44,605 nucleotides of DNA from Dehalococcoidia bacterium (GCA_030651175.1 JAUSCR010000029.1:1-44605), one strand, 5' to 3'; numbered from the stretch's first letter, positions 8,861 through 16,523 are shown. The notes: a model not told the origin generated them from the sequence alone. Numbers and translations: made by a program.

Positions 8861-9010
8861 GAGTTCAGGGCGAGCGGATTTGTTTACTCCCGCTCGTGGT
8901 GAGCTTGTCGAACCACGTGAGCGGCCTAATAATCCCGCTCACCCTGAGCCTGTCGAAGGAAATGAGCGGTCCGTTCTCATGTCACCCTGAGCGCAGCGAA
9001 GGGTCTAAGG
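8861..9010. repeat. Cluster of family-B hairpin modules
   Basis: CCCGCTCGTGGTGAGCTTGTCGAACCACGTGAGCGG, then TAATAATCCCGCTCACCCTGAGCCTGTCGAAGGAAATGAGCGG, then GTCACCCTGAGCGCAGCGAAGGGTCTAAGG. The last is a direct repeat of the 8682-8712 module. Confidence 0.8.
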
Positions 9011-9106: not shown

Positions 9107-10090
9107 TTACTCCGCCGGCTCTTGTGTCGGCGAGGGTGACAGGGTGGGCAGCACCACCCTGGCCGCAGCCTTCTCCGCGGCGCTGATGGGGTCAACCTCG
9201 CCTCGTTCCACCGCTTGCGCCAGCTCGGCCAGTTCGCCTTCTCCCTGAAGCAGCCCTTCAATGCGAGAGTGGACCGCCCCCTCCAGGTGGGATAGGAAGG
9301 CCAGTCGCCTTCTTTCCCTGCGCCGCTTCTCTAGCTGTGACGACGAGGCCAGGAACTGCCGGTGCTGCTGGATTCGCTCATACAGCTCCGGCACCCCATC
9401 CCCTGTTTGCGCTTGCGTGGTGACCACTGGCGCCGTCCAGCCTGGCACCCGCTGCCCCAGGGAAAGCATACCCTTCAAAGCATTGACCATGGCCGCAGCG
9501 CCCTCACGGTCGGCCTTGTTCACCACAAAGATGTCGGCTGCTTCCATGAGGCCGGCCTTCATGGTCTGAATGGCGTCGCCGGCCTCCGGCACAAGCACCA
9601 CCACCACCGTATCGGCCACTGTCGTCACATCTATCTCCGACTGGCCCACGCCAGCAGTCTCCACCAGCACCATATCTTTCCCCGCCGCATCCAGAAGCTG
9701 CACCGCCCCCATGAGAGCCGCTGCAATGCCGCCCCGGCTGCCACGGCTGGCCATGCTTCTGATAAAGACGCCGTGGTCCAGGTAGTGGCGTTGCATCCGG
9801 ATCCGGTCTCCCAGAACGGCGCCGCCGGTATATGGACTGGTGGGGTCCACGGCCAGGATTCCAACCGAGCGGCCTTCCTGGCGGATGACGTAGGCCAGCG
9901 CATCCACCAGCGTGCTCTTGCCGCTGCCCGGTGGCCCGGTAACACCAACGCAGTACGACCGGCCCGTGTGCGGGGCGATGGCCTGGAGAAGCTCAGGCAC
10001 TCGAACGTCCTGCCGCTCCACCAGGGAGACCAACTGCGAAAGGGCGTGGCGGTCCCCCGCCAGCAGGCGTTGAATGAGGTCTTGAAGCAA
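9107..10090 (-). CDS. meaB: MeaB/ArgK-type G3E-family GTPase (methylmalonyl-CoA mutase-associated)
   Basis: 327 aa with GVTGPPGSGKSTLVDAL (P-loop), VLVETAGVGQSE and VVNKADREGA (the NKxD motif). TTG start with a GGAGTGGA RBS. Confidence 0.85.
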   Translation of the reverse strand: MLQDLIQRLLAGDRHALSQLVSLVERQDVRVPELLQAIAPHTGRSYCVGVTGPPGSGKSTLVDALAYVIRQEGRSVGILAVDPTSPYTGGAVLGDRIRMQRHYLDHGVFIRSMASRGSRGGIAAALMGAVQLLDAAGKDMVLVETAGVGQSEIDVTTVADTVVVVLVPEAGDAIQTMKAGLMEAADIFVVNKADREGAAAMVNALKGMLSLGQRVPGWTAPVVTTQAQTGDGVPELYERIQQHRQFLASSSQLEKRRRERRRLAFLSHLEGAVHSRIEGLLQGEGELAELAQAVERGEVDPISAAEKAAARVVLPTLSPSPTQEPAE

Positions 10091-13470: not shown

Positions 13471-14313
13471 TTGGCATTGAACTCCGATAAAGCAGAGCTA
13501 ACTATTATCAGCGATGGGAATATCAAGCTTGACGGCGGAGCGATGTTTGGCCAGGTGCCTAAAGTCTTGTGGGAGCAGAAAACGCTGCCCGACCGGAGGA
13601 ATAGGATATCCCTGGGGCTGAACTGCCTTCTAATCAGGAACGGCGGTCATTGTACCCTGGTAGACACTGGAGTAGGCAGCAAGGAACCCGATAAGATAAA
13701 AGACCGGTATGGCCTGGGCAGCAGCCAGTTGGCCAAGGAGCTCCGGAACCGGGGACTGACTCCCAAAGATATTACCGGGGTCATTTTGACCCACCTCCAC
13801 TTCGACCATGCCGGAGGCAGCACCCGTCTGGACCGTGCCGGTGAGGCGGTGCCCACTTTCCCCGCCGCCAAATACTATATCCAAAAAGCCGATTGGGAGG
13901 AGGCTATTTCTCCCAACGAACGGTCCAAGGGGTCCTACCACAGCGACGATTTCCTGCCCCTGGAAGAGCGAGGGCAACTGATTCTGCTGGAGGGTGACTC
14001 GGAGGTTGCCCCAGGCGTGCACGTGAGGGTCACAGGCGGTCACTCCCAAGGCCACCAGATGGTGTTGGTGAACTACGGGGGTGAGCGGGTAGCCTTCATG
14101 GGCGACCTGGTTCCAACGCCCCATCACCTCCGGTTGCCGTATGTTACCTCCTATGACCGGTTTCCTGAAGACACGCTGGAGAAAAAACGAGCCTTGCTAG
14201 AGGAGGCCGAAAGGTGCGGATGGCTTATCGTTTTTTGTCACGGCTCCAAAGAGCGTGCCGGATACATTGAACGACGGAACGGTGCGCTGAGCTTTCGTCC
14301 AGTAGAGCTATAG
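13471..14313 (+). CDS. MBL-fold metallo-hydrolase
   Basis: 280 aa with THLHFDHAGG (the HxHxDH motif) and downstream His/Asp ligands (GGHSQGH, FMGDLV). TTG start preceded by GGGGAGG. Confidence 0.8.
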   Translation: MALNSDKAELTIISDGNIKLDGGAMFGQVPKVLWEQKTLPDRRNRISLGLNCLLIRNGGHCTLVDTGVGSKEPDKIKDRYGLGSSQLAKELRNRGLTPKDITGVILTHLHFDHAGGSTRLDRAGEAVPTFPAAKYYIQKADWEEAISPNERSKGSYHSDDFLPLEERGQLILLEGDSEVAPGVHVRVTGGHSQGHQMVLVNYGGERVAFMGDLVPTPHHLRLPYVTSYDRFPEDTLEKKRALLEEAERCGWLIVFCHGSKERAGYIERRNGALSFRPVEL

Positions 14314-14468
14314 GCTGCTGAAAAAGGAAAGTCCAGAGGGGCGAAGCCCCTTTGGTGGGGGACTGGGGGTATCCCCCAGATATGCTTTTCACCCCCTTCC
14401 TGGCCAGGAAGGGGGTCATGGGGATGGTCGAAGGAGTTTTTCATCACCCTGATAAGCTGCTGAGCAGG
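14314..14468 (+). repeat. Family-A composite repeat, copy 4 (most complete copy)
   Basis: GCTGCTGAAAAAGGAAAGTCCAGAGGGGCGAAGCCCCTTTGGTGGGGGACTGGGGGTATCCCCCAGATATGCTTTTCACCCCCTTCCTGGCCAGGAAGGGGGTCATGGGGATGGTCGAAGGAGTTTTTCATCACCCTGATAAGCTGCTGAGCAGG. It fills the entire gap between the convergent MBL and mtaB genes. Confidence 0.9.
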
Positions 14469-14469
14469 A

Positions 14470-15870
14470 TCATCCAGGGGGACCACGTCGAGCGGGTCCT
14501 TCTAGTAGAGCACACTGCTGGGGCGCAACCCCGCTCCTGAAAGGATGGATTACTCTTCCCCAGACTACCTCTCTCTCCTGATGCTCCATCACCACGGGAG
14601 TGATGCGGTTGTGCAGAGGCTCTGTTGACCACGTGGCCACTCGCACATAGCTGTCAGTGAGGCCCGCCCACACCTGGTCGCCCGCCACCGAACGACTGGT
14701 TTCCCACAAAACCGGGCATATGGTGCCCATGAGCGTTTGCCGGTAGCGGCGAGCTTGCCCCCTCGCCTGAGCTAGCATTACGTCCATCCTGTGCCGCTTT
14801 TCTGGTTCTGCCACATTCAGGCTTAGGTGCGCCGCGGAGGTGCCGGGGCGCTGCGAGTATGGGAAGGCGTTTAGCCCCGAAAACTCCACATTCCGGCACA
14901 GGTCATGGGTCTCCTGGAACTGTTGCGCTGTCTCTCCAGGAAAGCCCACAATAATATCGGTGGTGATGGCGGCCCGGGCCACCCGCTGCCGGATACTTTC
15001 CGCCGCCTGAACGTACTGCCTGGGCGAGTAGCGCCGGTGCATGGCCTTCAGCACCTCCGCGGAGCCGCTCTGGAGGGGCAGGTGAAAATGCGGGCATAGC
15101 CTAGGGTTTTCCCACAGCGCCAGCAGCTCATCGCTTATCTCCTGGGGCTGTAGAGATGAGACCCGCAGCCGTGGCACTGATGTCTTCTCCAAGAGCCGCC
15201 GGATAAGGCCTGTCAAGGATGCGCCAGGGAGATCGAATCCGTAGGTACCGAGTTGCGTCCCTGTAAGCACCACCTCCTGGTAGCCTTCGGCTGCGAGACG
15301 CTGTATCTGGGCTACCAAAGCATCCGGGTGCAGGCTTCTCTCCCTGCCCCGCACCTTGGGCACTATGCAATAGGCGCAGACCTGGTTGCACCCCTCTTGT
15401 ATCTTCACCGTGGCACGCGTGTGCCCCGGAGCCGGGGCCTGTTCATGCAAAATGGTGTCTGTGGAGCGAGGCCCACTAGCAATAATCCCGCTCATCCTGA
15501 GCCTGTCGAAGGAGATGAGCGGGGCTAGGCCCACAAGCCTGTTCACCTGCTCTAAGAGATTATCCTTCTGGGTGTTGCCCAGCACCAGTCCAACCCCTTC
15601 CACCTGGGCCAGTCGCTCTGGCGCTCGCTGGGCGTAGCAGCCCGTGGCCACCAACAGCGCGCCTGGATTGGCGCGGTGCACGGCGCTCAGGGCACGGCGA
15701 GCCTTGCGGTCGGCCACGTGGGTCACCGTGCAGGTGTTGACCACGCATACGTCCGCCTGGGCTGGGTCATCCACCATCCGATACCCTGCCTCCGCAAAAC
15801 GTCGCGCCAGGGCCTGGGAGTCTGCCTGGTTGAGCTTGCAGCCGTGGGTCTCTATGTAAACGAGTGTCAT
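14470..15870 (-). CDS. mtaB: tRNA (N6-threonylcarbamoyl-A37) methylthiotransferase MtaB (radical SAM MTTase)
   Basis: N-terminal MTTase domain (TLVYIETHGCKLNQ...VVNTCTVT), radical-SAM CNQVCAYCIVP and a TRAM-like C-terminus. The preferred start, ATG 15870, forms an ATGA overlap with the upstream kinase stop. The ORF track starts at 15888. Confidence 0.85.
   Translation of the reverse strand: MTLVYIETHGCKLNQADSQALARRFAEAGYRMVDDPAQADVCVVNTCTVTHVADRKARRALSAVHRANPGALLVATGCYAQRAPERLAQVEGVGLVLGNTQKDNLLEQVNRLVGLAPLISFDRLRMSGIIASGPRSTDTILHEQAPAPGHTRATVKIQEGCNQVCAYCIVPKVRGRERSLHPDALVAQIQRLAAEGYQEVVLTGTQLGTYGFDLPGASLTGLIRRLLEKTSVPRLRVSSLQPQEISDELLALWENPRLCPHFHLPLQSGSAEVLKAMHRRYSPRQYVQAAESIRQRVARAAITTDIIVGFPGETAQQFQETHDLCRNVEFSGLNAFPYSQRPGTSAAHLSLNVAEPEKRHRMDVMLAQARGQARRYRQTLMGTICPVLWETSRSVAGDQVWAGLTDSYVRVATWSTEPLHNRITPVVMEHQEREVVWGRVIHPFRSGVAPQQCALLEGPARRGPPG
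15481..15524. repeat. Family-B hairpin module located inside the mtaB coding sequence, in frame
   Basis: AATAATCCCGCTCATCCTGAGCCTGTCGAAGGAGATGAGCGGGG matches the intergenic copy TAATAATCCCGCTCACCCTGAGCCTGTCGAAGGAAATGAGCGG at 8930-8972 with about 2 mismatches. Confidence 0.8.
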
Positions 15871-16523
15871 CGTCCTTGCCGTGTCCACCGCTGTATCTCC
15901 CTGGCCACCTTTGCTACCACTGGCTCAATGTCGCCAGAGGTATCCACCGATATATGGTCACGTTTAATTGGTTCCTGGAGCGGGCGCATCCGCTGGTACA
16001 CGCCCCAATCGGCATCGGAATGGTCCTGGCGCAAAGGCGTTTTGCCTCGTACATCCAGGCGCTGGCGGACTACCTGGGGCGGCGCTTCCACAAGCACCAA
16101 CATCATTTTGGCATTGTGCCGCTCCGCCAGCCGGTACAGTGGCTCGCGGTGGGCCTCGGCCAGGCTGGTGGCATCCAGCAGCACAGATAGTCGTTGTCCC
16201 AGCAGGAGGTCAATGACCTCATGGATTGCCTGGAACAACCTGGCGCTCTCCTTTGCGGTATGGATGGGAGATGGCGTCAGGACTTTTCGCATGGCATCGC
16301 TCTCCAGCACCGTCAGGGGCGCTTGCTGGGCCAGGCGCTGGCTGAAGTAACTTTTGCCCGTACCAGGCAGCCCGCTGACCACTACCAGCACGGTTTGAAG
16401 CATAGGCTCCGGCAGCAAGCCGTCTAAGCTTCGCAGAAGCCGCCGAGCGTCGCGGGACGCGGCTGTAGCGGCCTGCCCTTCATGGGTGGAGCGGGTATTG
16501 TGGAATCGGTTCATAGATGCCAA
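15867..16523 (-). CDS. P-loop kinase/ATPase (AAA_33 / zeta-toxin-like predicted kinase)
   Basis: 218 aa with Walker A VVSGLPGTGKSYF and an acidic LLDAT segment. Translationally coupled to mtaB. Confidence 0.6.
   Translation of the reverse strand: MASMNRFHNTRSTHEGQAATAASRDARRLLRSLDGLLPEPMLQTVLVVVSGLPGTGKSYFSQRLAQQAPLTVLESDAMRKVLTPSPIHTAKESARLFQAIHEVIDLLLGQRLSVLLDATSLAEAHREPLYRLAERHNAKMMLVLVEAPPQVVRQRLDVRGKTPLRQDHSDADWGVYQRMRPLQEPIKRDHISVDTSGDIEPVVAKVAREIQRWTRQGR

Follow-up and report, generated by a model that had tools for sequence, protein, structure and literature searches.

Rickettsia palindromic elements (RPEs) are described, in the passages of the literature cited here, as abundant palindromic repeats that lie in frame within unrelated housekeeping genes (Ogata et al. 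2000, 2002; PMC10969869, PMC3733652). According to the same passages they measure ~100-150 bp, encode conserved peptides and occur only in Rickettsia and Wolbachia, which are alpha-proteobacterial endosymbionts. Intragenic copies are also known among the GTAG- and CGTC-tagged REPs, with genes for replication and repair as frequent hosts (Di Nocera, De Gregorio and Rocco 2013, PMC3733652). Template switching, for its part, is known to have inverted the loops of rRNA and miRNA hairpins in a single event (Monttinen and Loytynoja 2022, PMC8794818). Here we describe a 45-nt palindromic insert within the mtaB gene of a Dehalococcoidia bacterium, which we consider quite likely to be a selfish, REP-like element that is tolerated in the disordered linker between two domains, and not an exapted peptide.

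The window, by which we mean the whole stretch of DNA that was analysed (44,605 nucleotides), carries the host gene on its minus strand:

14470-15888, minus strand: mtaB coding sequence, 472 codons, GTG start, intact and uninterrupted
15577-15861, minus strand: N-terminal MTTase (UPF0004) domain, residues 10-104 (Pfam PF00919, E = 4.1e-26)
14899-15405, minus strand: radical-SAM domain, residues 162-330 (Pfam PF04055, E = 1.5e-22)
15367-15390, minus strand: CxxxCxxC motif (CNQVCAYC), with C167, C171 and C174

To assign the product we used its score against the MtaB equivalog, the UPF0004, radical-SAM and TRAM-like architecture, the three N-terminal cysteines and the CxxxCxxC motif. The score against TIGR01579 is 399.3 bits, above the curated cut-off of 357, and both the architecture and the cysteines fit, which identifies the gene, at the level of sequence, as that of MtaB, the tRNA ms2t6A methylthiotransferase. 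Among 70 homologues, C167, C171, C174, C53 and C84 are invariant and C17 is nearly so. The solved structures nearest in sequence are those of MiaB and RimO. An AlphaFold2 model built with the 70-homologue alignment has a mean pLDDT of 85.5 and a pTM of 0.84, and its best Foldseek matches, with TM scores of 0.77-0.85, are 9a6d, a model of Bacillus subtilis MtaB, and 7mjv-7mjz, crystal structures of MiaB. In this model a helix (residues 105-119) closes the N-terminal domain and a strand (158-162) begins the radical-SAM barrel; between them, residues 125-152 have a pLDDT below 50. Outside the linker, dN/dS is 0.20-0.29 for all pairs of the alleles described below, with or without the insert, at dS values of up to 0.57, and judging by these ratios mtaB is under purifying selection. 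The gene upstream of mtaB encodes a KTI12/AAA_33 kinase on every contig compared, and a metallo-beta-lactamase gene lies downstream in the window and in L034/L035, the records that run past mtaB. We also observed a C-terminal tail of ~22 residues (PFRSGVAPQQCALLEGPARRGPPG, residues 452-472, window 14470-14540) with a pLDDT below 50. This tail is found in P0004, P0005 and P0121 as well, is missing from more distant homologues, and stops just upstream of a family-A repeat at 14308-14456; it may be a read-through extension.

For 30 related genomes, of which two are congeneric and the others belong to the same order, the best MtaB match per genome was taken, and 24 full-length orthologues were aligned. 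All 24, including that of the same-genus genome G001 (77-80% identical), have a gap of exactly 15 residues opposite LAPLISFDRLRMSGI, and the segment is missing both from repeat-rich genomes and from genomes without the repeat family. This gap, together with a codon comparison with the empty sites of L002 and L051 (see below), sets the limits of the insert to within a few bases, the linker being variable. The insert and its parts are:

15481-15525, minus strand: inserted segment, 45 nt, residues 122-136 (APLISFDRLRMSGII)
15487-15523: core 37-nt hairpin module, from its fold and an nhmmer match (47.4 bits, E = 2.7e-12)
15487-15496 and 15514-15523: the two hairpin arms, CCCGCTCATC and GATGAGCGGG
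15497-15513: hairpin loop, 17 nt (CTGAGCCTGTCGAAGGA)

In the AlphaFold2 model the insert begins directly after helix 105-119 and lies mostly inside the low-confidence linker 125-152. The hairpin in the mRNA has a 10-bp stem and a 17-nt loop; the 81-nt stretch around it has a folding energy of -33.9 kcal/mol (z = -1.5), which is unexceptional for its composition. For the insert-bearing MtaB, the predicted junction tryptic peptides are LVGLAPLISFDR and MSGIIASGPR.

These results bear out most of what a sequence-only reading of the window had proposed. The 44-nt module that it placed at 15481-15524 is present as written and lies, as it said, within an uninterrupted mtaB frame, the coding sequence listed above. 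Its minus-strand translation, ...LAPLISFDRLRMSGIIA..., is correct, with CNQVCAYC 32 residues downstream, and the frame is indeed kept without a stop in a gene with the dN/dS given above. What it estimated as about 15-20 extra residues is exactly 15 (45 nt) in comparison with the 24 orthologues, and the interdomain linker in which it put them is the variable stretch between the MTTase and radical-SAM domains. The hairpin that it saw in the mRNA is formed by the stem and loop just described, with ordinary stability. It had suggested an orthologue alignment, which gives a lineage-specific insertion missing in 24 of 24, and a structural model, which has the insert start after the helix and run into the low-confidence loop. 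A segment of the same length in repeat-free orthologues, which it had named as counter-evidence, was seen in none of the 24.

In the window's genome (G000) the mtaB copy is bracketed by a perfect 8-bp direct repeat, AGGCCCAC, at 15469-15476 and 15527-15534. We considered this repeat and the flanking CTAG motifs as a target-site duplication, such as accompanies the terminal inverted repeats of a MITE, and rejected them as a signature of one. Neither feature is conserved in other carriers, the direct repeat not being kept in L031, L032 and L034, and neither deletion is a multiple of three; excising 58 nt, the element plus one copy of AGGCCCAC (base count by hand), would break the frame. The bracketing is probably a coincidence.

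The module belongs to a high-copy family. With up to 3 mismatches allowed, the 17-nt core of the module, CCTGAGCCTGTCGAAGG, was counted 5 times in the window, where 0.22 are expected and where none of 100 shuffles reached 5. In the 2.48-Mb genome there are 103 occurrences at up to 2 mismatches, compared with 2 for a reversed control. With an nhmmer profile made from 85 full hairpins (consensus CCGCTCAyCCTGAGCyTGTCGAAGGrrATGAGCGG), 176 copies of the 37-nt hairpin were found in this 2.48-Mb assembly, which consists of 199 contigs and is 97.8% complete with 5.6% contamination. Further copies in the window are:

8928-8969, plus strand: intergenic sister copy of family D7, 95% identical to the mtaB copy over 42 nt (nhmmer, 49.0 bits), which is the near-identity that the sequence-only reading had reported
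8883-8924, plus strand: neighbouring intergenic module, sub-type GGTGAGC...GAACC, oriented like 8928-8969
2253-2323: another intergenic pair of modules of the family, from core-motif, repeat and nhmmer searches

Neighbouring loops within 70 nt of each other are inverted in 50 cases (RF 30, FR 20) and in the same orientation in 4 (FF 3, RR 1), with a module spacing of 44-46 nt in the pairs. The intergenic pair at 8883-8972 is one of the only 3 FF pairs in the genome, as against 50 inverted ones, and may itself have been produced by loop inversion.

Both within the genome and across the order, the 17-nt loop is the best-conserved part of the module, while the stems vary among sub-families (CCGCTCA…, CCGTTCG…). 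Of the 31 genomes of the order, 21 have the loop motif CCTGAGCYTGTCGAAGG, in 2 to 222 copies (222 in G025) with controls at 0-1; the core motif was not found in the other 10. That the loop is better conserved than the stem suggests a sequence-specific recognition factor. Four of the six reading frames of the module are free of stops, and the module with its spacer measures 44-46 nt; on each strand, two of the three frames of the 45-nt unit thus form an open cassette of 15 codons. Searching the window with Rfam 15 gave no match to the module, only 23S rRNA and one tRNA. No Y1/RAYT gene (PF01797) was matched in the 97.8%-complete, fragmented G000 assembly, while 6 of 14 control genomes did have matches, and no more than 4 of 85 copies have GTAG, CTAC, CGTC or GACG within 10 nt of an end. 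Literature searches with the motif (CTGTCGAAGG, TTCGACAGGCTC, TTCGACAAGCTC) found no paper describing it and, among the matches listed, only unrelated primers; a search on Dehalococcoidia repeats gave nothing relevant among the matches listed.

The scan of other coding sequences that the sequence-only reading had proposed yielded in-frame repeats in three further genes. Candidates were drawn from an ORF scan over the 176 copies and from wider motif and k-mer scans, which added uvrC and priA, and the genes were compared with those of five related genomes. In the ORF census of the 176 copies, only those in mtaB and alaS lie deep inside ORFs that have domain or orthologue support. The inserts on other contigs of G000 are:

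C116, 13733-13810: alaS, +81 nt (27 codons), two modules of the super-family, ...PDSARGSTGSPRTDYGSVRPELVEG...
C89, 7936-7991: priA, +48 nt, a CTCCGAC…GTCGGAC module that G001 does not have
C198, ~9600-9760: uvrC, ~50-60 extra residues

The alaS modules read …TTCGACAGGCTCACCACGAACGG…CCGTTCGCCCTGAGCTTGTCGAAGGGCG…, and the 81 nt are missing from G001 and the other compared genomes. Part of the uvrC stretch resembles, by eye, the ~145-bp family A repeats (D1-D3) plus a CCTGAGCCTGCCGAAGG module; the stretch is common to G001 (89% identity) and missing in three other families of the order. Both the alaS insert (81 nt) and that of priA (48 nt) are exact multiples of three, and those of alaS, priA and uvrC are all free of stops. 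The VEG codons of the alaS module align with a native VEG of the empty allele, possibly a trace of junction microhomology. Separately, the AlaRS proteins of G000 (C116) and G001 carry an extra segment of ~108 residues (query residues 140-247) that is not obviously repeat-derived and is missing in G008 and G010, from two of three other families, with matches on both sides.

Several other candidates were discarded. ORFs that overlap module copies on C32, C68, C97, C142, C160 and C17 have no Pfam domain, and on C37 the true gene begins downstream of the repeat; none of these was accepted as an intragenic insertion. In a census of high-copy 12-mers within long ORFs, paralogous protein motifs and read-through ORFs lying upstream drowned out most of the signal; used to pick candidates, it yielded priA. 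Apparent hits in trpF-like, aroC-like and other genes appear, from the ORF translations alone, to lie upstream of the true start.

Four closer relatives of the window's MtaB were found in a large protein collection, and their contigs were compared at the codon level. The insert sits at the same codon in five contigs from other samples (L031, L032/L033 and L034/L035), and the site was found in four states:

G000 (the window) and L032 (P0003, 87% identical): forward form, CCCGCTCATC-TCCTTCGACAGGCTCAG-GATGAGCGGG
L031 (P0002, 91% identical) and a second contig (P0121): the same arms, with the loop, CTGAGCCTGTCGAAGGA, as the exact reverse complement
L034/L035 (P0004): both hairpin ends kept, with 96 nt extra in the loop
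L002 (P0005, that is, G001) and L051 (P0013): empty, with a Pro/Arg-Glu dipeptide as in the outgroups

All insert-bearing alleles stay in frame. The asymmetric 3' flank (xTTATTGCY AGT) keeps both its sequence and its side in L031, and therefore the loop was inverted in place; we rejected a separate insertion in the opposite orientation because the flank would then be 5'. Minute hairpin inversions occur in chloroplast spacers. Here the inversion recodes the peptide PLISFDRLRMSG to PLILSLSKEMSG (SFDRLR to LSLSKE) without a stop, and the sister alleles differ at 6 of 12 positions of the peptide. The extra DNA of L034/L035 is 88-90% identical over 109-122 nt to a composite repeat of G000 (C112:15974-16095 and C111:13098-13206), which at C112 also separates the two halves of a module. 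This match therefore indicates that a second repeat landed in the loop of the first, adding 32 codons.

A tree of mtaB was made without the linker columns, P0013 being represented by a partial sequence. Its topology is (P0004,((P0001,P0002),(P0003,(P0005,P0013)))), with support of 100/99 for the six-member clade, 99/97 for the five-member clade and 100/100 for P0001+P0002. P0003, which has the forward form, branches outside P0001+P0002, and the empty P0005 and P0013 are nested among the carriers. The inversion is well placed in this tree: it occurred in the P0002 lineage once that had parted from the one leading to the window (dS 0.125). A tree that keeps the four carriers in a single clade is worse by 15 log-likelihood units (AU p = 0.012), a result to be taken only as an indication because the group was named after the tree had been seen and because of the partial P0013; a tree with P0001-P0003 as a clade is not rejected (p = 0.14). 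If the carriers are not one clade, a single gain needs a later clean loss or recombination, the alternative being two hits at the site. Three histories thus remain: an old gain followed by clean loss, two hits at the same site, and exchange of alleles by recombination.

Our preferred explanation is that a non-autonomous REP-like module, a 37-nt hairpin with ~8 nt of spacer (45 nt), was inserted in the unstructured linker of MtaB by a mobility mechanism that we infer for the family. A unit of 15 codons, with four stop-free frames out of six, would have left the gene open and the enzyme working, so that the insertion was not purged. Its 15 residues would be a passenger loop and not an adapted part of the enzyme, a neutrality suggested by their variability. 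After its arrival the hairpin would have behaved as other copies of the family do. In one sister lineage the loop was inverted in place, most likely by a replication template switch or by recombination between the 10-bp arms, and in another a second repeat of ~96 nt landed in it. The outcomes observed are all stop-free multiples of three, since any other would have put mtaB out of action. The same data can be read in another way, in which the site is a hot spot that received the module in two separate events, one in the P0004 lineage and one in the P0001-P0003 lineage, with identical orientation and frame, and P0005 and P0013 never had it. The position of these two empty alleles inside the carriers, with the AU test rejecting carrier monophyly (p = 0.012), and the outgroup Pro/Arg-Glu dipeptide that their sites retain would fit this reading, and different REPs are found at about the same recB site in two Xanthomonas species (PMC3733652). 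On the other hand, L034 and G000 share an identical 3' junction (GAGCGGGATTATTGCT) and the same frame, for which common descent is the easier explanation, and the tested group has the weaknesses already given, its definition after the tree was seen and the partial P0013. We therefore regard independent insertion as a tentative alternative, on balance unlikely.

The sequence-only reading had left open whether the element was tolerated or exapted. Of these, tolerance is supported and exaptation is not, in view of the inverted loop, the split by 32 residues and the absence of the insert from two nested lineages. Exaptation would mean that the loop has a role in the enzyme, such as contact with tRNA or a partner, or that the hairpin acts in the mRNA or DNA; possible variants are a translational pause between the Fe-S domains and a binding site for a factor that recognises the conserved loop. 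It is true that the insert has been retained across a dS of ~0.5, that the peptide varies among three alleles whose hairpin arms are preserved, and that the loop motif is conserved in 21 of 31 genomes of the order. However, the peptide reads SFDRLR in one sister and LSLSKE in the other, is interrupted by 32 residues in P0004 and lies in a region of low model confidence, and the insert is missing from two nested lineages as well as from every other orthologue. For the peptide, then, exaptation is unlikely because the residues of the sisters differ, one allele is interrupted and nested lineages are without the insert. As for the nucleic acid, G000 and L032 differ at 1 of 37 nt where ~4.4 differences are expected from their gene-wide nucleotide identity of 88.1%, which is not significant (Poisson tail ~0.07, by hand), and the mRNA fold is not unusually stable. 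Exaptation in any of these forms is therefore improbable in our view, and none of the measurements calls for a role of the nucleic acid. A more elaborate proposal, that nucleic-acid selection keeps the hairpin, that the order-wide loop is the recognition site of a factor, that intragenic copies act in cis and that the inversion is a reversible switch, we hold to be highly improbable. If it were true, the copies could act by, for example, ribosome pausing between the Fe-S domains or DNA marking, and inversion of the loop would toggle the polarity of the site together with six residues of MtaB. That the repeat was misassembled into mtaB, or that the gene is a pseudogene, is scarcely credible. 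The assembly is fragmented (199 contigs) and has 5.6% contamination, but the five contigs from other samples carry this insertion at the identical codon, and the ORF is intact, scores above the MtaB equivalog cut-off and has a dN/dS of 0.2-0.29. What is more, the 10-bp arms are far below the k-mer lengths typical of assembly, which are much longer than 10 bp. A tolerated REP-like insertion thus remains the reading that we favour.

Compared with known systems, the mtaB insert is like the RPEs in being a copy of an abundant palindromic repeat that is found in frame in unrelated housekeeping genes and adds a loop compatible with the fold. By their published descriptions the RPEs are set apart from it: here the unit is 45 nt (with a 37-nt hairpin), the motif is another one, and the hosts, by the names of the homologues, are Chloroflexota. 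The intragenic share is also different, ~1% of the copies here and, in the cited passages on RPEs, nearly half. The likeness is thus one of behaviour only. The GTAG/CGTC REPs are likewise short stem-loops that are mostly extragenic, often form inverted dimers and lie within genes in a minority of cases, and the presence of inserts in the replication-restart gene priA and the excision-repair gene uvrC, besides mtaB and alaS, echoes the replication and repair bias of intragenic REPs (PMC3733652). Unlike them, the present family has no end tag (at most 4 of 85 copies), and its long 17-nt loop is its most conserved part. It resembles the REP/REPIN elements that have a Y1 (RAYT) transposase in size, in palindromic shape, in high copy number and in its inverted doublets (50 vs 4). 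It is, as they are, a high-copy palindrome mostly outside genes and arranged in inverted doublets; it differs in that neither a cognate Y1 transposase gene in the assembly nor a GTAG cleavage motif was found, and its mobility is putative.

The inverted allele is like the template-switch inversions in having an exactly reverse-complemented loop between unchanged inverted arms. Those cases mostly concern 4-8-nt loops of rRNA or non-coding DNA, whereas here a 17-nt loop lies in a coding frame and six residues are recoded; a non-exhaustive literature search found no report of a 17-nt loop inversion inside a reading frame. For annotation, segments of this type should not be taken for frameshifts or gene breaks, and the inserts should be masked when mtaB, alaS, priA and uvrC of this clade are aligned or used for trees. 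The alleles of mtaB form a natural series at a single codon position, with empty, filled, loop-inverted and doubly filled states, in which the element appears to be still evolving inside a constrained gene and one event of the template-switch type would recode six residues. Protein-coding palindromes, described from Rickettsia, Wolbachia and the REP-rich Proteobacteria, are thereby extended to Chloroflexota of groundwater, where the unit is far smaller. The kind of insertion is already known from the RPEs and the intragenic REPs; what is new is the repeat family, the phylum and the allelic series.
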